A stretch of 64,000 nucleotides of DNA. Source: Bacillota bacterium (GTDB taxonomy: Bacteria > Bacillota > Sulfobacillia > RBS10-35 > Bu92). Positions 1,594 to 53,831 of the stretch are shown here, piece by piece; the stretch's first letter is position 1, and each line of letters opens with the position of its first letter. The translations under genes were made by a program, and so were the position numbers. The notes under the pieces were generated by a model that was not told where the DNA came from, searched no databases, and saw nothing but the letters and a program-made list of their open reading frames with translations. The DNA lies in NCBI GenBank assembly GCA_014896375.1, contig JADBKN010000009.1, positions 75,088-139,087 on the forward strand, given 5' to 3'.

Positions 1594-4242
1594 TTGTCAG
1601 AACGGCAGGAGGAGCAGTACGGCGGGCTGCCCACGGAGCTGTCCTGGAAGATCTTCATCGACCGCTACACGGTGAAGGACCAGGCGCGCCAGTTCCAGCC
1701 GGGAGAGCTGGCCGTCGTGCAGACGAACGACGACCCGAAATGGCCCCGCAAGGAGCTCGGACGCGTGTTGAGGGTCGATGAGGCCGAGGACCGGATCGAG
1801 CTTGAGCTGCTCACCGGAGCGGACAAGGGACAGCGCATCGTGCGCCGCCGCCGGGAGTGCGATCGCCCGCTGGAGACGTCGCTGCGCCAGGTGGCGGAGC
1901 GCATCGCGCGCGGCCTCGCCGCCGTGGAGACGGACGCGAAGGCGCGCAAGCGCTGGGAGCGCACCTTCGCGGAGGAGATCGCGGCGCTGCGCGTGGTGCC
2001 CGGCGGCCGCGTCTGGGCCGGCGCGGGTACGGGCATCCCGCTCACGCTCTTCAACTGCTACGTCCTGCCGAACCCGAAGGACAGCCGCCAGGGCATCGTG
2101 GAGACGCTCGGGCAGATGATCGAGATCATGTCGCGCGGGGGCGGCGTGGGCATCAACGTCTCCAGCCTGCGGCCGTACCGCGCGGTGGTCCGCGGCGTCA
2201 ACGGCCGCAGTTCGGGCGCCGTCTCGTGGATGGAGCTCTACAGCCTCGCCACGGGCCTCGTGGAGCAGGGCGGCTCGCGCCGCGGGGCGCTGATGCTGCA
2301 GCTCGACATCCGCCATCCGGACTGGAAGCGCTTCATCGACTGCAAGAAGGTGCCCGGCAAGGTCGAGAACGCGAACATCAGCCTGCGCATCACGGACGAT
2401 TTCATGACGGCCGTCAAGGAGGACCGCGACTGGGCCTTCTGGTTCCCGGACACCACGCACCCTCAATACAACGAGATCTGGGACGGCGACTTCGACAAGT
2501 GGGAGGCGCTCGGCCTGCCCAAGATCGAGTACGAGACTGTGCCCGCGCGAAAGGTGTGGCAGGAGATCATCCAGGCCGCATGGGCGAGCGCGGAGCCGGG
2601 CGTCGTATTCTCCACGCGGCATGAGAAGGATTCTAACAGTTGGTACTACAATCCTTTGATTTGCACGAACCCTTGCGCGGAACAACCGCTGCCAGCTTGG
2701 GGCGTCTGCACATTAGGCCATGTGAATCTGGCGCATATGTATGACGCTGCACAGAATGATGTCGATTGGCAGCAACTGCGCCACTCGGTGCGCACGCTCG
2801 TGCGGCTCCTCGACAACGTCGTCGACGCGACGCACTACTTCATCGAGGAGAACCGCCAGAACCAGATGCGGGAGCGGCGCATCGGCGCGGGCACGCTCGG
2901 GCTTGGAGAGCTCCTCATCCGGCTCGGCCTGCGCTACGGTTCGCCCGAGGCGGTCGAGTTCACGGACAAGCTCTACCGCTTCATCGCCGTGGAGGCGTAC
3001 AAGGCCTCCATCGACCTCGCCAAGGAGAAGGGGCCGTTCCCCGCCTTCGACGCGGAGAAGTTCCTCCAGTCCGGCTTCATGCGGCGCATGCCGGAAGAGG
3101 TGCGGGAGCTCGTGCGGCGGCACGGCATCCGCAACGTCACGGTGCTGACGCAGGCGCCGACGGGCACGGTGGGCACGATGCTCGACACATCGACCGGCAT
3201 CGAGCCGTTCTACTCCCTCAAGTTCACGCGCCAGTCGCGCCTCGGCGTCGACACGCAATATGTGCGCGTGGCGCAGGAGTGGCTGGACGCGCACCCCGGC
3301 GAGCCGCTGCCGGACTACTTCGTGGGGGCGCTGGACCTCACGCCGGAGGAGCACATCGCCATGCAGGCGGCGATCCAGCGCTGGACGGACAGCAGCATCT
3401 CCAAGACGGCGAACGCGCCGGCGGACTACACGGTGGAGCAGACGGCCGAGTTGTACATGAAGGCGTACGACATGGGCTGCAAGGGCGTCACCGTCTACCG
3501 GGACAGCTCGCGCTACGAGCAGGTCCTGCGCGACGCGTCCAAGGAAGACGCCGGCGAGGGCGAGGAGGGGGCGCCGCAGGCCGCCGCGGCCCCGGCCGCA
3601 CCGGCGGGCGTGGGCGGGCAGGTCGTCAACGGCACATGGGGGCGCATCCGGCCGATCCCGCGCCCGAAGCGGCTGGTGGGCGTCACGGACGCCAAGGACA
3701 CGCCGCTCGGGAAGCTCTTCCTCACGCTCAACCTCCTCAACGGCCACCCGGTCGAGCTCTTCGCGCAGATCGGCCGGGCGGGCAGCGATGTGGCGGCGTT
3801 CACGGAGGCGGTGGCGCGGCTGGTGTCCCTGGCGCTGCGGTCCGGCGTGGACCCGCAGGAGGTGGCGGACCAGCTCATCGGCATCGGCGGCAGCCGTTCC
3901 GTGGGGTACGGGCCGAACCGCGTGCGCTCCGTGCCGGACGCGATCGGCCAGTTCATCAGCGAGATGCTCGCGGCGGCGTCCGTGGAGGAGCTGATGCGCC
4001 AGACGGCGCCCCTCGCCGGCGCGGGCCGCGGGCCGGCGCGCGAGGAGCAGGCGGCCACGCGCACCGAGACGCGGCCGCAGGTCCATGTGTCTCCAGACGT
4101 GCTGGCATCGGCGGGCGCTCACGCGAACGGAAACGGCAACGGCCTGCGGCACGCGGACATCTGCCCCGTGTGCGGCGTGCAGGCGCTCGTTCACGAGGAA
4201 GGATGCGTGCACTGCTACGCCTGTGGGCACAGTGAATGTTAG
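1594..4242 (+). CDS. nrdJ: Adenosylcobalamin-dependent ribonucleoside-triphosphate/diphosphate reductase (class II RNR, NrdJ)
   Basis: 882-aa ORF with class II RNR signatures (…CTNPCAEQPLPAWGVCTLGHVNL…) and a C-terminal Cys-rich Zn-ribbon (CPVCGVQALVHEEGCVHCYACGHSEC). Follows nrdR. Confidence 0.9.
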   Translation: MSERQEEQYGGLPTELSWKIFIDRYTVKDQARQFQPGELAVVQTNDDPKWPRKELGRVLRVDEAEDRIELELLTGADKGQRIVRRRRECDRPLETSLRQVAERIARGLAAVETDAKARKRWERTFAEEIAALRVVPGGRVWAGAGTGIPLTLFNCYVLPNPKDSRQGIVETLGQMIEIMSRGGGVGINVSSLRPYRAVVRGVNGRSSGAVSWMELYSLATGLVEQGGSRRGALMLQLDIRHPDWKRFIDCKKVPGKVENANISLRITDDFMTAVKEDRDWAFWFPDTTHPQYNEIWDGDFDKWEALGLPKIEYETVPARKVWQEIIQAAWASAEPGVVFSTRHEKDSNSWYYNPLICTNPCAEQPLPAWGVCTLGHVNLAHMYDAAQNDVDWQQLRHSVRTLVRLLDNVVDATHYFIEENRQNQMRERRIGAGTLGLGELLIRLGLRYGSPEAVEFTDKLYRFIAVEAYKASIDLAKEKGPFPAFDAEKFLQSGFMRRMPEEVRELVRRHGIRNVTVLTQAPTGTVGTMLDTSTGIEPFYSLKFTRQSRLGVDTQYVRVAQEWLDAHPGEPLPDYFVGALDLTPEEHIAMQAAIQRWTDSSISKTANAPADYTVEQTAELYMKAYDMGCKGVTVYRDSSRYEQVLRDASKEDAGEGEEGAPQAAAAPAAPAGVGGQVVNGTWGRIRPIPRPKRLVGVTDAKDTPLGKLFLTLNLLNGHPVELFAQIGRAGSDVAAFTEAVARLVSLALRSGVDPQEVADQLIGIGGSRSVGYGPNRVRSVPDAIGQFISEMLAAASVEELMRQTAPLAGAGRGPAREEQAATRTETRPQVHVSPDVLASAGAHANGNGNGLRHADICPVCGVQALVHEEGCVHCYACGHSEC

Positions 4243-20031: not shown

Positions 20032-21156
20032 GTGCAGGTTGTGCATGCGACGGGTCCGGCGCGGGTGGGGCGGCGCACCAAGTGGCTTGCCGCCCGCCTG
20101 CGCCGCGGCGACGTGGCGATCATCGACCACCGCGACCTGGACGAGGTGGCGGCGCGCTCGCTCCTCGACCGCGGCGTGCGTGCCGTCGTCAATGCCGACA
20201 CGTTCCTCTCCGGACGGTATCCCGCGGGCGGGGCGCGGCTGCTCGCCGCGGCCGGCGTGGCATTGGTCGAGGAGGTCGGGCGCTCCATCCTCGACCTGCC
20301 GGACGGCGTGCCCGTCGAGATCGAAGACGACCTCGTGCGCGCCGCCGGGCGGGAGTGGCGCGGCCGCGCAGTGGCGGCCCCCGAGCTTGAGGAGCGCTGG
20401 CGGCGCGCGCACAGCCACCTGCGCGCGGAGCTGGCGGCCTTTCTCGCCAACACCATCGACCACGCGCGCAAGGAGCAGGACCTCGTCCTCCAGCCCCTGG
20501 AGCTGCCGCGCCTCGCCACGCGCCTTGAGGGCCGCGCGGCCGTCGTCGTCGTGCGGGGCCACGCCTACACCGAGGATCTCGCGGCTGTGCGCCCCTTCCT
20601 CCTCGACACGCGGCCCGTCCTCATCGGCGTCGACGGCGGCGCCGACGCCATCCTGCAGGCCGGCTTCCGCCCGGACATGGTCGTCGGCGACATGGACAGC
20701 GTCTCCGACCGCGCGCTGCGCCTCGCGCGCGACGTCATCGTGCACGCCTACCCGGACGGGCGCGCGCCCGGCTGGACGCGCGTGAAGGCGCTGGGCCTGC
20801 CCGCCCGGCGCGTGCCGGCCGCCGGCACGAGCGAGGACCTGGCGCTGCTCCTCGCCTACCAGGGTGGGGCGCGGCCGATCGTCGTCGTGGGCGCGCACAC
20901 GAACATCGTCGACTTTCTGGAAAAGGGCCGCCCCGGGATGGCCAGCACGTTCCTCACGAGGCTCCTCATCGGGCACGTGCTGATCGACGCTAAAGGCGTG
21001 AGCCGTCTCTACCGGGGCGGCCGCCGGCCGGTGTACGCAGGCTACCTCCTCGCGGCCGCGGCCCTGCCGCTGGGGGCGATCTTCGCGGCGCTGCCCGTGA
21101 CGCGCATCATCGCGCGGCTCTGGTGGCTCGAGCTGCGTATGGCCCTGGGCTGGTGA
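20032..21156 (+). CDS. steA: SteA-family protein (thiamin-pyrophosphokinase-like catalytic domain plus C-terminal membrane anchor)
   Basis: GTG start. Conserved N-terminus …ARVGRRTKWLAARLRRGDVAIIDHRDLD…. Central …VLIGVDGGADAIL…VVGDMDSVSD… TPK-like motif. Hydrophobic C-terminus. Confidence 0.7.
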   Translation: MQVVHATGPARVGRRTKWLAARLRRGDVAIIDHRDLDEVAARSLLDRGVRAVVNADTFLSGRYPAGGARLLAAAGVALVEEVGRSILDLPDGVPVEIEDDLVRAAGREWRGRAVAAPELEERWRRAHSHLRAELAAFLANTIDHARKEQDLVLQPLELPRLATRLEGRAAVVVVRGHAYTEDLAAVRPFLLDTRPVLIGVDGGADAILQAGFRPDMVVGDMDSVSDRALRLARDVIVHAYPDGRAPGWTRVKALGLPARRVPAAGTSEDLALLLAYQGGARPIVVVGAHTNIVDFLEKGRPGMASTFLTRLLIGHVLIDAKGVSRLYRGGRRPVYAGYLLAAAALPLGAIFAALPVTRIIARLWWLELRMALGW

Positions 21157-21159
21157 GCG

Positions 21160-22059
21160 ATGCTCGACTTCCGCTGGTACCTGGCGACGCTCACGGCCAT
21201 CCTCGCGGCGCTGGCCGTGGGGATCGTCGTGGGCAGCGCCGCCCTCGGCCCCGAGGTGTGGACGGCGCACGAAGGCCGCCTCGTGGCGGACATCGAGGGT
21301 CGCCTGGGGGAGTTGCGGCAGGAGGAGGCGCGTCGCCAGCGGGAGGCGGTCCGCCTGCAGAAGGAGCTTGAGGCGGCGCGCGCCTTCGAGGAGGCGGCGG
21401 CGGCGTGGCTGGTCCGGGGGCGGCTCGAAGGGGTGCGCGTGGCGCTCGTGGCGGCGGGCGACGGGGCCCCGGCGGGGGCCGCCGCCGGGGCGCTGCAGGC
21501 GGCCGAGGCCGTCGTCTCCTGGCGGTTGGAGGTGCCGGCGCGCTGGCCGGCGGACGCGCGCCTGACCGGGGTGCTCGGCGTCCGCCCGACGCCGGAGGCG
21601 GCCGCCACGCGGCTGGGCGAGGCGCTCGCCGCCGGCGACCGCCTCACGCTGGAGGCGCTCGCGGGGGCGGGAGCGGTGCGCCTCGTCGCCGCACCGCCCG
21701 CCGCGCCGCCCGGGACGCTGCAGGGCACGGAGGCCTGCCGCGTGCTGGTGCTGGTCACGGGCGCGGGACCCGTGGACGGCCGGCCGCTCCTGGCGCTGGC
21801 GCGCGCGGCGGCGCGGGAGGGCGCGCGTGTCGTGGTCGCGTCACCGACCGGCGCGGCCTTCGACCCCGCGGCGGCGGTCGGACCCGGCGTGGCGACGGTC
21901 GACGATCTCGACCGTCCGGCCGGGTTGGCGGCCCTCGTGCTCGCCGCGGCCGGGTCCGACGGCCGCTTCGGTGTCCGCCCCGGAGCGCTCCCGCTGCCGG
22001 CGCCGCCTGCTGCGGGTGCCGCCCCGCCGCCCCCGCCCGGTCCGGGCGCCCCGCGCTGA
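21160..22059 (+). CDS. steB: SteB/MctB-family membrane protein (partner of SteA). Ala/Gly/Pro-rich.
   Basis: N-terminal TM (MLDFRWYLATLTAILAALAVGIVVG) and a coiled-coil-like segment. Gene position immediately after steA as in actinobacterial steA-steB pairs. Confidence 0.5.
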   Translation: MLDFRWYLATLTAILAALAVGIVVGSAALGPEVWTAHEGRLVADIEGRLGELRQEEARRQREAVRLQKELEAARAFEEAAAAWLVRGRLEGVRVALVAAGDGAPAGAAAGALQAAEAVVSWRLEVPARWPADARLTGVLGVRPTPEAAATRLGEALAAGDRLTLEALAGAGAVRLVAAPPAAPPGTLQGTEACRVLVLVTGAGPVDGRPLLALARAAAREGARVVVASPTGAAFDPAAAVGPGVATVDDLDRPAGLAALVLAAAGSDGRFGVRPGALPLPAPPAAGAAPPPPPGPGAPR

Positions 22060-22303
22060 AGGAGGCGCCGGTTTCGGCAGCGTATAATGTTGACACGGCA
22101 GCGTGCGCCCGAAAGGGGTTGGCGGATGCCGTCTCCGGCCGCCGGCGGCACCATGGGATGGCATGGCGAGGGGGCGCCGGGCGCCGGTCCGGCCCGGTCG
22201 GAGGCATTCACGCATCTCGGTTGAAGGGTGGCGGAGGCGGAGCCGCCCTCTTTTTGTGCATGGAGACGAGCGAACGGGCGCCCCGTTCGAGGAGGTCGTG
22301 CCG

Positions 22304-23389
22304 GTGACTGTATTTTCCAATGCGGCCCACGACGGGCATGAACAGGTCGTCTTTTGCCGCGACGAGGCGTCGGGCCTGCGCGCGATCATCGCCATCCACA
22401 GCACGGCGCTGGGTCCGGCGCTGGGCGGTTGCCGGATGTGGCCGTACGCGTCGGAGGAGGAGGCGCTCTTCGATGTGCTGCGCCTCTCTCGCGGGATGAC
22501 CTACAAGAACGCGGCCATGGGCCTCAATTTCGGCGGCGGCAAGAGCGTGATCATCGCCGATCCCCGCCGTGACAAGTCGGAAGAGCTCTTCCGCGCCTTC
22601 GGCCGCTTCGTGCAGTCCCTGGGCGGACGCTACTACACGGCGGAAGACGTCGGCATCCACAGCGACGACCTCATCTACGTCCGCCAGGAGACCGACTACG
22701 TGCTGGGCCTGCCCGAGAAGAGCGGCGACCCGTCTCCGGCCACGGCCTACGGGGTCTACTGCGGCATCCGCGCCTGCCTGGAAGAGGTCTACGGCTCGGA
22801 CGATCCCGCCGGCCGCACCGTGGCCATCCAGGGTGCGGGCCAGGTGGGCTACCACCTGGCGAAACTGCTCGCGGAAGCGGGCGCACGCGTCGTCATCGCC
22901 GACATCTTCGAGGACAAGGTGCGGCGCGCCGTCGAGGACCTGGGCGTGGAGAGCGTGCCGGCCGAGTCCGTGTACGATGTCGAGTGCGACGTCTTCGCTC
23001 CCTGCGCGCTGGGAGCGGTGATCAACGACGAGACGCTGCCGCGCCTGAAGTGCCGCATCATCGCCGGCTCGGCCAACAACCAGCTGGCGGAGCCGCGCCA
23101 CGGAGACCGCCTCGAGGAGATGGGCATCCTCTACGCCCCGGACTACGTCATCAACGGCGGCGGTGTGATCAACGTGGCCTCCGAATTCAACCCTGGAGGC
23201 TACCGGCGCGATGATGCGTACAGGAAGATCGCCGGCATCGGCGGCAAGCTGAAGGAGCTGTTCGCCATCGCACGGCGGGAGGGCATCCCGACGTACCGCG
23301 CGGCGGACGTGCTGGCGGAGGAGCGCATCCGGCGCATCCGGGAGCTCGACCGCATCTTCGTGCCGGCGCGCGGCGGCGCAAGGGGGTAG
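22304..23389 (+). CDS. Leucine/valine (branched-chain amino-acid) dehydrogenase, Glu/Leu/Phe/Val dehydrogenase family
   Basis: …EQVVFCRDEASGLRAIIAIHSTALGPALGGCRMWPYASEEEAL…GGGKSVI… and a GAGQVGYHLAKLL Rossmann motif. GTG at 22304 with GAGGAGG RBS 8 nt upstream. Confidence 0.85.
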   Translation: MTVFSNAAHDGHEQVVFCRDEASGLRAIIAIHSTALGPALGGCRMWPYASEEEALFDVLRLSRGMTYKNAAMGLNFGGGKSVIIADPRRDKSEELFRAFGRFVQSLGGRYYTAEDVGIHSDDLIYVRQETDYVLGLPEKSGDPSPATAYGVYCGIRACLEEVYGSDDPAGRTVAIQGAGQVGYHLAKLLAEAGARVVIADIFEDKVRRAVEDLGVESVPAESVYDVECDVFAPCALGAVINDETLPRLKCRIIAGSANNQLAEPRHGDRLEEMGILYAPDYVINGGGVINVASEFNPGGYRRDDAYRKIAGIGGKLKELFAIARREGIPTYRAADVLAEERIRRIRELDRIFVPARGGARG

Positions 23390-23392
23390 AGC

Positions 23393-24298
23393 GTGAAACT
23401 GGAGCCTGAATCGCACGCGGCGAGGCCCAAGCGCAAGGTCTCAGTGCACGTCGTGGAGGACCTCATCCGGGAGCTGCCGGCGGTGCTCGACGCCCGCCTG
23501 GTCGTGAACCCGTGGGGCGGGGTCGAGGAGGTCCACGTGCTGGCGGACCGCACGCGGCCCGCGAAGGGCATCGTGCGGGATGTGGAAAGTGCGCTCATGG
23601 CGCGCTGGGGTCTGCGCATCGACCGGAAAAAGATCTCCGTCGCGCAGGTGCGCGGTCTGCCGCCGGCGGACAAGTTCGTCCGCGTCAAGGTCACGCGCCT
23701 GTCACTGTCCCAGGACACCGTGGCCGGCCGCGTGCGCGTGGAGCTGGAGATCGCCCCGGAGCCGCAGCGGGACCGGCTTGGGCGGATCATCCTGGACCCT
23801 GAGATCCCGGAGGGGCCGTGGCACGGCCGGGCGGAGGGGCCATCCCTCGGAGACGCCGCGCGGCGCGTGGGGGCGGAGGCGCTGCTCGCGGCGCTGAACC
23901 AGGCGCTGCAAGACGGACACTGGCTGGAGTGCTGGGCCGTCGAGACGCATGAGGTGGGGGCGCATCCCGTCGTCACGGCGCTCGTGCTGTATCGCATGCC
24001 GCGCGGCCGCCAGCAGCTGCTCTGCGGCAGCGTCGTTCTCAAGGAGGGAGACGACGCCGTGCAAGCCGGCATTCGCGCGGCGATGGACGCGACCAACCGC
24101 ATCTTTGGCCGGGCGATGCGCCGCGCCCTGCCGCGGGCGGCCGGCGCGGCGCAGGCGGCGGGTGCGGCCGGCGCCGGCTCGTCGTCCGGCGCGCCCGGGA
24201 CCGGGGAGCCCACGCAGGCCGAGCGGGAGGCTGCGGCCGCCGGGGAGGCCGGCGGGGCGGAGGGGTCGACACGTTCACCGTCTCCTGGGCGGAAGTGA
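23393..24298 (+). CDS. Hypothetical protein (301 aa) with an Ala/Gly-rich low-complexity C-terminus
   Basis: GTG start 4 nt after the leuDH stop. The N-terminal 230 aa look globular (…VVEDLIRELPAVLDARLVVNPWGG…WLECWAVETHEVGAHPVVTALVLYRMPRG…). No family recognised. Confidence 0.45.
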   Translation: MKLEPESHAARPKRKVSVHVVEDLIRELPAVLDARLVVNPWGGVEEVHVLADRTRPAKGIVRDVESALMARWGLRIDRKKISVAQVRGLPPADKFVRVKVTRLSLSQDTVAGRVRVELEIAPEPQRDRLGRIILDPEIPEGPWHGRAEGPSLGDAARRVGAEALLAALNQALQDGHWLECWAVETHEVGAHPVVTALVLYRMPRGRQQLLCGSVVLKEGDDAVQAGIRAAMDATNRIFGRAMRRALPRAAGAAQAAGAAGAGSSSGAPGTGEPTQAEREAAAAGEAGGAEGSTRSPSPGRK

Positions 24299-25371
24299 TC
24301 GTAGCCGAACCGCGGCCGCTGGGGCGCGTGGACCTTCGCGTGCGGCTTCCCGGGGGTGAGGAGGCCTCGGCCGTCGCCTATCCGGCGCTCACGGGTCCGG
24401 TGGCACCCGGAGACCGCGTGCTCCTCAACACCACGGCCGTCCGCCTGGGACTCGGCACCGGCGGGCGGCACTTCGTCATGGCCGTGGAGGGCCGCCTCTG
24501 GAGCGAGGAGGCGCCCGGCCACATCATGAAGCTCCGCTATACGCCCTGGCAGCGCTCCCTCCTCCATGTCGAAGAGGAGGGTGGTTCAGGTCATGACCTT
24601 TTGAGAGACGCGGCGTGCGTCTCCGGCCAGCCAGTGGTGGCGCTGGGCCTGCACAGCCAGCTGGAGCCGGTCGTGCGCGCCTGCCGCCTCGCTGCGCCCC
24701 GGGCGCGCGTCGTCTACGTGCACACGGACGGCGCCGCGCTTCCGGTCGCCTTCAGCGACACGGTCGCCGCCCTGCGGGAGGAGGGGCTGCTCGCGGCCGT
24801 CATCGCCACCGGCCAGGCTTTCGGCGGCGACGCGGAGACGGTGGCTCTGCCCAGCGCGCTCCTTGCCGCGGCGCTCGTCTTCGGCGCGGACGTCATCGTC
24901 GCCGGCATGGGACCGGGCATCGCCGGCACCGGCACGCGCCTCGGCCACAGCGGCACCGAGCAGGCGTGGATCGCCGCCGCGGCGCGCGCTCTGGGCGGCC
25001 GGCCCATCGTGGTGCCGCGCCTCAGCGCCGCGGACCCGCGCGCGCGCCACACCGGCCTCTCCCACCACACGCTCGCCGTGCTGGAGTCCCTCCTGGAAGT
25101 GCCGGTGTGGGTCGCCTGGCCGCACGGCCACGCTCTGCCGGCCGGCGCCCTGGCGGCGGCGGATGCGGCCTTCCGGAGCTCCGCCGCCGTGCGGCGCCAC
25201 CTCCGGGTGCATGTCGACCTCGATCCTTACTGGGAGTCGCTCGCCGCCTCGTCGCCCGGCTGGTCGACGATGCGCCGCCCGCTCTCCGCCGATCCGCTTC
25301 CGTTCGCCGCCGCCGCCGCCGCCGGGCTCCTCGCCGCCGGGCTGGCCGCGCCCGCTGCGCCGACCGCCTGA
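24295..25371 (+). CDS. Hypothetical protein (358 aa, possibly DUF3866-like)
   Basis: ATG overlaps the previous stop (ATGA coupling). Gly-rich segment …VAGMGPGIAGTGTRLGHSGTEQ…. No confident family assignment. Confidence 0.45.
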   Translation: MIVAEPRPLGRVDLRVRLPGGEEASAVAYPALTGPVAPGDRVLLNTTAVRLGLGTGGRHFVMAVEGRLWSEEAPGHIMKLRYTPWQRSLLHVEEEGGSGHDLLRDAACVSGQPVVALGLHSQLEPVVRACRLAAPRARVVYVHTDGAALPVAFSDTVAALREEGLLAAVIATGQAFGGDAETVALPSALLAAALVFGADVIVAGMGPGIAGTGTRLGHSGTEQAWIAAAARALGGRPIVVPRLSAADPRARHTGLSHHTLAVLESLLEVPVWVAWPHGHALPAGALAAADAAFRSSAAVRRHLRVHVDLDPYWESLAASSPGWSTMRRPLSADPLPFAAAAAAGLLAAGLAAPAAPTA

Positions 25372-25562: not shown

Positions 25563-26210
25563 GTGCGCGTGGGCCGGGGTTGGGGATGGGGCAGGCGGAC
25601 ATCGGCGGCCTTCCGGCGGCACGCGCTGGAGTACGTGGCCGCGGCCGCCTGCCTTCTTGCGGGCAGCGCGGCCGGGGCGCTGGCTGTGGGCGGCATCGGG
25701 CCGGCGGCCCGCGCGCGGCTCGTCGACGATCTGCAATCCCTCTTCCACGCGTCCTCATCCGCCCTGCCCGCCGCCGCCACCGTCTTCGGCCGGGCGCTGG
25801 AGGTGCATGCGGCGACCGCCGCCCTCCTCTGGGGCGCCGCCTTCACGGCGCTCGGTCTCGTCCTGGTTCCGGTCGTGCTCTTCGCGCGGGGCTTCTCGCT
25901 GGGCTTCGCCGCGGGTTTCCTCGTCTATGAAGGCGGCTGGCCCGGCTTCCTGCTCGTCGCCGCCTCCCTCTTTCCTTCCCAGGCCGTGCTCATCCCCCTC
26001 TGGATCGGGCTCGCCGGCGCCGCCTGGCGGCTGGCCTTCCGCTACGCGCGGCAGCGCGCCGGCGCCGGGCGGGTCGCGTGGCCCGAGGCGCTCGCCGCCC
26101 AGGTCCCCTGGGCCGCGGCCGCCGGGCTGGGCGTGCTGGCGGCGAGCCTTCTCGACGCCTACCTCGCCCCGGTGGCGCTGCATGCCGTGCTGCGCGCCAT
26201 CGCGCCCTGA
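25563..26210 (+). CDS. spoIIM: Stage II sporulation protein M (SpoIIM/DUF95 membrane protein)
   Basis: ~215-aa polytopic membrane protein. GTG at 25563 with GGGAGGGA RBS. The TM pattern and the …LVYEGGWPGFLLVAASLFPSQAVLIPLWI… block resemble SpoIIM. Lies near xerD, as spoIIM does near ripX in B. subtilis. Confidence 0.55.
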   Translation: MRVGRGWGWGRRTSAAFRRHALEYVAAAACLLAGSAAGALAVGGIGPAARARLVDDLQSLFHASSSALPAAATVFGRALEVHAATAALLWGAAFTALGLVLVPVVLFARGFSLGFAAGFLVYEGGWPGFLLVAASLFPSQAVLIPLWIGLAGAAWRLAFRYARQRAGAGRVAWPEALAAQVPWAAAAGLGVLAASLLDAYLAPVALHAVLRAIAP

Positions 26211-52599: not shown

Positions 52600-53282
52600 C
52601 AGCGGCTGGTGCGATCGCCTCGACGCCTCGCTCGTCAGCTTGGCGATGATGCCGAAGGGGAGAACACCACCGTGATCGCGAGGATGCCGTGGTCAGCCCG
52701 AGGCCGACAAGGGCGACGAACAGGGCGGCAAGAGCAGTTTGATCGTCGGAGAACGTTCATCACGCCCCGGGCAAGGCCGTAGACAGGCCGGTTCGGCGTG
52801 ACGTTCCGGGCGATGGCGAAGATGATCAGGACGCTCATCAGGGCGCCGAGCGTCATGCCGGGCAGCCATCACGGATCGTCTCGAGACGGCCCGGGAGGAC
52901 CTTCAGCATGTACGGCCGGATTCGGCGACAAAAGCGCCGGAAGCGCATCATGGGGCGCTCCAGAGCGAGCCGGCCAACGTCGAGACCGAGGTGCCACCCG
53001 GAAGCGACGAGGGCCGCGGCGAAGAAACAGGGCGGACGCCCACCGCTGTAGGCCCAGGGCGGCGCCGGAAGGGAGCCGCTTCCGGCGGCCGACGTTCACT
53101 TTTTCACGGGAGCACCGTCCTTTTGCCGGAGCGCTCATAAGGGGCATCGCCGGCCGGAACCTCGTCGGGAAGGCGGAACGCCCCTCGGCCTTTGTTCCGC
53201 CTCCGGGCGTCCATCCGGCGGCGGCAAGTTCGGCAAGCCAGATCTCGGCAAAACGTCGTCCGTCGCCGCCTCGACCGAGGGC
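52600..53282 (-). pseudogene. Decayed remnant of a membrane-transporter-like gene. Hydrophobic ORF pieces are split over three frames.
   Basis: The minus strand encodes fragments such as SGSLPAPPWAYSGGRPPCFFAAALVASGWHLGLDVG, MTLGALMSVLIIFAIARNVTPNRPVYGLARGVMNVL and ALAALFVALVGLGLTT in different frames, separated by stops. No intact ORF exists. Confidence 0.35.

Positions 53283-53831
<549 letters not shown>

Follow-up and report, generated by a model that had tools for sequence, protein, structure and literature searches.

The locus and its genes

Two adjacent genes, designated here ORF1 and ORF2 (ORF for open reading frame), occupy positions 23,393 to 25,371 of a 64-kb stretch of DNA from Bacillota bacterium (Sulfobacillia; GenBank assembly GCA_014896375.1, contig JADBKN010000009.1, positions 75,088 to 139,087). 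The whole stretch at its full length is called the window, and coordinates refer to it unless a locus is named. The two genes lie between leuDH and spoIIM, and the original prediction, made from the letters alone, had taken them as a coupled pair of uncharacterized genes embedded in a sporulation neighborhood. The features of the locus (nt, nucleotides; aa, amino acids) are as follows.

20032–21156 and 21160–22059, + strand: steA and steB (Pfam TPK_catalytic and SteA-like_C; MctB).
22230–22256, + strand: terminator-like hairpin and T-run in the steB–leuDH spacer (terminator scan and sequence).
22298–23389, + strand: leuDH, a Leu-type ELFV amino-acid dehydrogenase (Pfam ELFV_dehydrog_N and ELFV_dehydrog; homologs of about 359 aa).
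23393–24298, + strand: ORF1, 301 aa, GTG start; without a Pfam or NCBIfam model; belongs to a large family that has no name, within a clade that closes LeuDH/2-oxoacid catabolic operons.
24295–24298, + strand: GTGA overlap, shared by the stop codon of ORF1 (TGA) and the start codon of ORF2 (GTG) (sequence).
24295–25371, + strand: ORF2, 358 aa, GTG start; full-length DUF3866 (PF12982).
25563–26210, + strand: spoIIM (Pfam SpoIIM, TIGR02831), likely GTG start at 25563 or 25569; 190 nt past ORF2.

The window has a G+C content of 72% and many spurious long ORFs. In ORF1 and ORF2, the G+C fraction at codon positions 1/2/3 is about 0.80/0.54/0.89 (the third-position value, or GC3, is 0.89 in ORF1), matching spo0A, steA, ald, and xerD, and the homologs of both number in the hundreds to thousands. 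Neither is therefore a chance ORF, and the two genes are real with the boundaries and lengths first proposed. The very long ORFs that run antisense or in another frame (such as that of 455 aa on the − strand across ORF1, 23200–24567) show no homology and no coding GC3 pattern; they are by-products of the high G+C content. By Pfam and NCBIfam, the neighbors are SpoIVB, Spo0A, SteA, SteB (MctB family), the Leu-type ELFV dehydrogenase, SpoIIM, Ald, XerD, Lgt, and SelA, in agreement with those named before (spo0A, steAB, leuDH, spoIIM, xerD).

The likely start of leuDH is the GTG at 22298 or 22304, downstream of a Shine–Dalgarno-like GAGGAGG. Its stop codon ends at 23389, leaving a 3-nt spacer before ORF1, which is preceded by a Shine–Dalgarno-like AAGGGGG. 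The predicted 4-nt overlap between ORF1 and ORF2 is present, with the reading GTGA and not ATGA. Given this tight spacing, and since a scan of the + strand from the start of leuDH to the end of ORF2 found no terminator-like site, co-transcription of leuDH, ORF1, and ORF2 is plausible, as had been proposed, with leuDH as the presumptive first gene of the unit. The hairpin between steB and leuDH is G+C-rich, carries a T-run, and lies 40 nt upstream of the leuDH start; it may be the end of the steAB unit or a leader attenuator. An Rfam search of the steB–leuDH spacer (22060–22297) matched no family, and no sigma54 promoter match was found near leuDH. The same spacer contains a TATAAT (22083) directly before a TTGACA (22090), the reverse of their order in a sigma-70 promoter.

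ORF2 is a DUF3866 protein

The suggestion that the second gene might be DUF3866-like is confirmed by a full-length match of ORF2 to PF12982 (353.8 bits against a cut-off of 25, E = 1.1e-105, model positions 2–318 of 318). The DUF3866 family is catalogued already, without an assigned function; with ORF1 lacking any Pfam or NCBIfam model, both genes are indeed uncharacterized. All family-invariant motifs are present in ORF2: GHIMKLRYTPWQ at aa 75–86, LHS at 119–121, TDGAALP at 144–150, AFGGD at 175–179, MGPGIxGTGT at 205–214, and RxSxxDxRxRHxGxSHH at 242–258. The Gly-rich loop noted at the outset is one of these conserved elements.

24904–24954, + strand: Gly-rich loop GMGPGIAGTGTRLGHSG (ORF2 aa 204–220), a conserved DUF3866 signature after a beta strand.

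In this loop, G206, G208, G211, and G217 are invariant, and conservation is at least 90% at P207, T212, G213, and T214; a strict regular expression for the motif finds it in 45/60 DUF3866 sequences.

ORF2 consists of an N-terminal beta domain (about aa 1–104) and a SIMIBI-like alpha/beta domain. The latter is structurally closest to SIMIBI P-loop NTPases and the central domains of Mur ligases (MeaB, SRP/FtsY, ParA/MinD, dethiobiotin synthetase, MurD, FolC), with which it has a common three-layer topology, although the fold similarity is weak. The Walker A motif GxxxxGK[ST] is absent from 60/60 DUF3866 sequences, and a P-loop NTPase was rejected on that ground. Searches of the PDB by sequence, with ORF1 and ORF2 as single proteins and with the family profiles, gave nothing useful, and DUF3866 is without a solved structural relative. 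Readings of ORF1 or ORF2 as anti-phage defense or phage genes were likewise rejected, as neither matches any PADLOC or PHROGs model. PMC12157513 was the only relevant paper retrieved by literature searches on PF12982, DUF5317, and the C. difficile 630 locus tags.

The usual setting of DUF3866

With one genome scanned per species, at least 595 DUF3866 loci were obtained, and the neighbors were annotated in 80 of them. The family occurs in at least 595 species, in Clostridia, some Bacilli, and other phyla. Carriers outside Clostridia are Thermobifida, Actinomadura, Actinoallomurus, Coriobacteriia, Varibaculum, Geothermincolia, and Armatimonadota; Peptostreptococcus also has it. In Bacillota, the usual order is spo0A–steA–steB–GT2–GT4–DUF3866–NUDIX–spoIIM–xerD (GT, glycosyltransferase): SteA lies upstream in 37/49 loci, Spo0A is near in 30/49, XerD in 42/49, and SpoIIM in 34/49, and a NUDIX gene directly follows DUF3866 in 46/57. 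An ORF1-family gene is found in 1/49 of the Bacillota loci.

The run SteA–SteB–GT2–GT4 (MraY-like)–DUF3866–NUDIX is tightly packed in Romboutsia, in a metagenome-assembled genome (MAG) of Natronincolaceae (L042), and in Thermoanaerobacterium. It is the cdr20291_1053–1057 cluster of C. difficile, every gene of which is essential for vegetative growth by transposon sequencing (Tn-seq); CRISPR interference (CRISPRi) knock-down of cdr20291_1053–1056, with 1057 not targeted, yields short, swollen, chaining cells (PMC12157513). SteAB regulates cell separation; in Actinobacteria, the peptidoglycan hydrolase that it activates is a septal one. SteA contains a pocket for a nucleotide, and the location of steAB downstream of spo0A in Clostridia is on record (PMC12977500). 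In view of the phyletic spread, the neighborhood data, and the essential C. difficile cluster, DUF3866 is a broadly distributed and vegetatively important gene, and its proximity to spo genes is owed to an ancient, conserved gene order and does not indicate a role in sporulation. The gene neighborhood, the genetics of one species, and the conserved Arg, His, and Gly motifs suggest a cytoplasmic, enzyme-like protein whose substrate would be anionic or of nucleotide type and whose envelope/division pathway would also include SteAB and the two glycosyltransferases.

In the window, leuDH and ORF1 stand between steAB and DUF3866, and tblastn (E ≤ 0.01) found no GT2, GT4 (MraY-like), or NUDIX homolog in the whole 64 kb. 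The steAB…DUF3866 cluster is thus eroded in this lineage. A different arrangement is seen in Actinomadura and Actinoallomurus (L076, 9842–11029; L087, 9950–11017), where DUF3866 is divergent and lies beside pafB/pafC-type WYL regulators, tatA, tatC, and a HelY-type helicase; it also adjoins DUF3291 there, a context unrelated to SteAB.

ORF1 joins a conserved N-domain to a probable LeuA-type domain

The first gene had been described as encoding a globular part of about 230 aa and an Ala/Gly-rich tail. The AlphaFold2 model bears this out, with a predicted local distance difference test (pLDDT) score above 90 for about aa 11–242 and a disordered tail. Three parts are distinguished.

23444–23647, + strand: N-terminal domain (aa 18–85), alpha-beta-beta-alpha-beta, ferredoxin-like, carrying the family signature.
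23684–24118, + strand: C-terminal domain (aa 98–242), built of two beta-beta-beta-alpha units and probably related, at a distance, to the LeuA/CimA regulatory domain.
24119–24295, + strand: Ala/Gly-rich tail (aa 243–301), disordered (pLDDT 44–67), lineage-specific.

The tail has 18 Ala and 12 Gly among its 59 residues; in the alignment, it is missing from typical relatives and variable in close ones. No Pfam or NCBIfam model matched ORF1. An indexed search returned 173 homologs, and an exhaustive profile search 4,333 representatives at 50% identity (E ≤ 1e-3), mostly of 205–250 aa, with Gemmatimonadota, Actinobacteria, and Armatimonadota MAGs among the taxa. The family is marked by a very conserved N-terminal block, E..I..L.GV...RV....G.v.EVHVLa...R.PKQvVRDVESAL....G...DH[RK]KISVAQ, in which E22, E46, H48, R62, S66, D77, and S82 of ORF1 are invariant; the C-terminal half is more variable and ends in A.LDA.NR.

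The two beta-beta-beta-alpha units of the C-terminal domain superpose on solved LeuA/CimA regulatory domains. With hhalign, the ORF1 family aligned to 11 LeuA/CimA regulatory domains gives a probability of 83.8% (E = 7.9e-6) over 98 co-linear columns; the comparison is informative only with this 11-sequence alignment, that with E. coli LeuA alone not being significant. The Pfam model LeuA_dimer (PF08502) is matched by 8/60 relatives at E ≤ 1 (best E = 3.2e-5), spanning nearly the whole model; relatives examined one by one scored below its 24.9-bit cut-off. The C-terminal domain of ORF1 is thus probably a remote homolog of the Leu/Ile-binding regulatory domain of LeuA/CimA, with a putative ligand pocket. 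In isopropylmalate synthase (IPMS) and citramalate synthase (CMS), the Leu and Ile sites lie in these regulatory domains (PMC9860122). A search of ORF1 for the HMGL-like TIM barrel gave no match, and the N-domain is only about 70 aa and ferredoxin-like. The family of ORF1 is not catalogued; it puts a known allosteric domain into a novel architecture and novel contexts.

The N-domain was also considered as the C-terminal domain of a cation diffusion facilitator (CDF) transporter (ZT_dimer), a candidate that calls for a cation-efflux membrane domain and a Pfam match; it was not borne out. Used alone as a query for fusions to known domains, the N-domain retrieved nearly only short or partial proteins and no informative fusion. 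Six proteins of 96–122 aa (P0461, P0471, P0484, P0491, P0492, P0494), on contigs of 32–109 kb, consist of the N-domain only; this domain may also exist as a stand-alone protein.

Gene contexts of the ORF1 family

Contexts were examined in 80 of at least 563 metagenome loci of the ORF1 family, downstream genes being counted in the 41 loci whose sequence continues for over 1.8 kb past the ORF1-family gene. A MASE9–HD-GYP gene lies immediately 3′ of the ORF1-family gene in 31 of these 41, of which 13 also have DUF5317. Upstream, there are Fe-hydrogenase-like GGDEF proteins (16/80) and sigma54 activators (15/80). The combination of an ORF1-family gene with MASE9–HD-GYP (metagenome loci L098–L172; loci L001–L005, L009–L010) forms a conserved, undescribed signalling module; in the literature, the MASE9–HD-GYP architecture is already described and has no known partner.

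The window belongs to another group, of 13 loci (window, L006, L008, L086, L093–L096, L099, L105, L106, L122, L165), which form a single clade in a neighbor-joining tree, apart from the HD-GYP and GGDEF clades. Wherever the upstream side can be read, LeuDH, the gamma subunit of 2-oxoacid:ferredoxin oxidoreductase, or branched-chain 2-oxoacid dehydrogenase (BCKDH)–LipA precedes ORF1 by 3–60 nt; the downstream gene varies, being DUF3866, SpoIIM, or XerD. We refer to it as the branched-chain amino-acid (BCAA) clade. In L106 and L122, the order is Spo0A–sigma54 activator–LeuDH–oxidoreductase–ORF1–XerD. One more locus, L097, has the same context and was left out of the tree, its ORF1 homolog (3423–4211) being split over two adjacent frames (3423–3704, 3708–4211) by a frameshift, pseudogene formation, or sequencing error. 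A search of the window found no BCKDH, oxidoreductase, HD-GYP gene, sigma54 activator, or second ORF1 paralog.

These contexts bear on what ORF1 does. One alternative, which we regard as quite unlikely, makes it an enzyme or a metal-binding protein, with the Glu, His, and Asp residues of the N-domain forming a catalytic or metal site for a last catabolic step and the LeuA-like domain serving dimerization only. The invariant E, H, and D residues within a CDF C-terminal-domain-like fold speak for it. ORF1, however, resembles no known catalytic family, alpha-beta-beta-alpha-beta modules of 70 residues are typical of regulatory or dimerization units, and the contexts of the family are mostly signalling ones (HD-GYP, GGDEF, response regulators, sigma54 activators). 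Because a variable sensor half is joined to a conserved output half, and because the contexts are rich in signalling genes, a sensor of branched-chain metabolites is favored over catalysis as the proposed role of ORF1.

Neither a conserved pair nor a sporulation module

The original prediction implied that the two genes are a coupled pair tied to sporulation. Put most strongly, ORF1 and ORF2 would be co-evolving partners with a sporulation-specific role, hence their position among spoIVB, spo0A, spoIIM, and xerD. The 4-nt overlap of the coding regions and the flanking sporulation genes speak for it, as do the frequencies with which Bacillota DUF3866 genes lie near spo0A (30/49) and spoIIM (34/49); Carloni et al. 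moreover suggest a possible sporulation role for clostridial steAB, placed after spo0A. Yet an ORF1-family gene is present within 10 kb in only 1/80 genomic DUF3866 loci, and DUF3866 in only 2/80 ORF1-family metagenome loci; within the BCAA clade, it is the upstream partner that is constant, and the downstream one varies. With so little co-occurrence, the adjacency of ORF1 and DUF3866 is a lineage-specific synteny and not a conserved pair or module. Nor does the phyletic profile follow endospore formers: DUF3866 is found in Actinomycetota, Armatimonadota, and Peptostreptococcus, which do not form endospores, and the ORF1 family in Gemmatimonadota, Actinobacteria, and Armatimonadota. Vegetative growth of C. 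difficile requires its DUF3866 cluster (PMC12157513), which goes against the implied role in sporulation, and the spo0A…xerD synteny itself includes the housekeeping genes ald, NUDIX, and lgt. A sporulation-specific pair is accordingly very improbable.

The genes, the DUF3866 assignment, and the neighbors of the original prediction thus stand, and its sporulation-tied pair is not supported. What it had itself named as speaking against it, homology to housekeeping enzymes or a pair not conserved as neighbors, is largely what was found, the C-terminal half of ORF1 being a probable remote homolog of the allosteric domain of the housekeeping enzymes LeuA/CimA.

A more local version of the link deserves separate weighing. 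In this Limnochordia-like lineage, ORF1 could have been recruited as a metabolite-responsive regulator of DUF3866, coupling BCAA status to envelope and division. DUF3866 directly follows ORF1 in six of the 13 clade loci (window, L006, L008, L086, L093, L094), with overlapping coding regions in the window, and other members of the ORF1 family seem to work with an adjacent enzyme, such as HD-GYP. Set against this, five loci (L095, L097, L105, L106, L122) keep the upstream LeuDH or oxidoreductase without DUF3866 downstream, the gap to DUF3866 in L006 is 200–300 nt, and 79/80 DUF3866 loci have no ORF1 relative nearby. We judge such a recruitment unlikely.

A probable junction of two unrelated conserved genes

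The reading that we consider probable is a lineage-specific junction of two unrelated conserved genes: ORF1 ends a unit of BCAA catabolism and would be its sensor, and ORF2 is the DUF3866 gene of an envelope/division cluster. ORF1 would be the last gene of a catabolic unit that comprises, in relatives, leuDH with 2-oxoacid:ferredoxin oxidoreductase or BCKDH and that would be reduced here to leuDH and ORF1. As a soluble protein of two domains, the conserved ferredoxin-like one and the LeuA-type one, ORF1 would dimerize via the latter, which would bind a branched-chain amino acid or a metabolite derived from it; the N-domain could then relay the signal to a partner. This partner might be the catabolic enzymes or their regulator in the BCAA clade, and the neighboring MASE9–HD-GYP phosphodiesterase in most other clades. 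ORF2 would be a remnant of the steAB–GT–DUF3866–NUDIX cluster, the BCAA unit occupying the place of the lost GT2, GT4, and NUDIX genes. The presence of such a unit in a "sporulation" neighborhood is explained by the fact that bkd-type units lie near spo0A in B. subtilis and next to it in relatives.

Several points weigh against this junction of a BCAA sensor and an envelope gene. ORF1 itself has no match to LeuA_dimer at E ≤ 0.1, and the homology to LeuA/CimA is distant, with an hhalign probability of 83.8%, an identity of 19%, and 8 inserted residues at the GNGP loop of LeuA. The most conserved residues, E46, H48, D77, and H78, are in the N-domain and could equally form a catalytic or metal site. 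The coding regions of ORF1 and ORF2 overlap and are probably co-expressed, and 6/13 clade members continue with DUF3866, so that a local functional link is possible. For DUF3866, the envelope/division role relies on gene neighborhood and, in one species, on a polar CRISPRi phenotype and Tn-seq, and the actinomycete genes are placed elsewhere, beside pafBC–tatAC.

Implications

Taken further, the data sketch a broader picture, which we put forward tentatively and hold to be doubtful as a whole. The ORF1 family would be a widespread, undescribed class of stand-alone sensors (at least 4,300 sequence clusters in Bacillota, Gemmatimonadota, Actinomycetota, and Armatimonadota), in which a LeuA-type domain drives a ferredoxin-like output to MASE9–HD-GYP phosphodiesterases of cyclic di-GMP (c-di-GMP) in most lineages, or to the LeuDH/2-oxoacid module in the BCAA clade; DUF3866 would be an essential, Walker-A-less, SIMIBI-like enzyme of the SteAB envelope/division pathway. 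If true, BCAA status would be tied directly to the turnover of a second messenger. The links of the ORF1 family to BCAA catabolism, HD-GYP, and GGDEF point to a possible new way in which amino-acid pools could act on c-di-GMP signalling and on the control of catabolism. Since it is essential in C. difficile and consistently encoded with SteAB, two glycosyltransferases of the lipid-linked-sugar type, and a NUDIX hydrolase, DUF3866 is a candidate for a missing envelope/division enzyme and a possible drug target.

The tempting annotation as a "sporulation gene pair" is removed, and two testable leads take its place. The window contributes a known locus in eroded form and no new system; neither lead is a major surprise alone.

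Elsewhere in the window, the − strand carries a fragment of 16S rRNA (53273–53828; Rfam RF00177, model positions 9–546 of 1533), the 5′ third only. The remainder was looked for in the 51–56 kb region and is absent; the fragment could be a truncated rRNA gene or a join in the assembly of the MAG.

Comparison with known systems

The regulatory domain of LeuA and CimA follows a catalytic barrel of the HMGL type in these enzymes; in ORF1, it is without such a barrel and has a novel N-domain in front. The GNGP loop of LeuA/CimA is replaced by a longer loop in ORF1, which scores under the Pfam cut-off. The domain serves biosynthetic feedback in LeuA/CimA, whereas ORF1 is linked to catabolism and signalling.

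The bkd operon of B. subtilis (bkdR; ptb–bcd–buk–lpdV–bkdAA–bkdAB–bkdB) lies near spo0A and is not known to contain an ORF1-like gene. The relatives L106, L122, and L008 likewise have a sigma54-type activator, LeuDH, and a 2-oxoacid-oxidizing complex beside spo0A, often a ferredoxin oxidoreductase instead of the BCKDH of B. subtilis. The unit in the window keeps only leuDH and ORF1, without an activator or a sigma54 promoter match.

With C. difficile CDR20291_1057 and the DUF3866 family, the window shares the full-length match, all motifs, steA and steB upstream, and spoIIM and xerD downstream. It differs from the family setting in the lack of GT2, GT4, and NUDIX, with leuDH and ORF1 there instead, and in the overlap of ORF2 with the end of ORF1. 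DUF3866 is no part of the SteAB system described in Actinobacteria. The SteA/SteB system is known from Corynebacterineae and, after spo0A, from Clostridia; in the window, steA and steB lie just upstream of leuDH, and in Bacillota, DUF3866 is their frequent operon partner.

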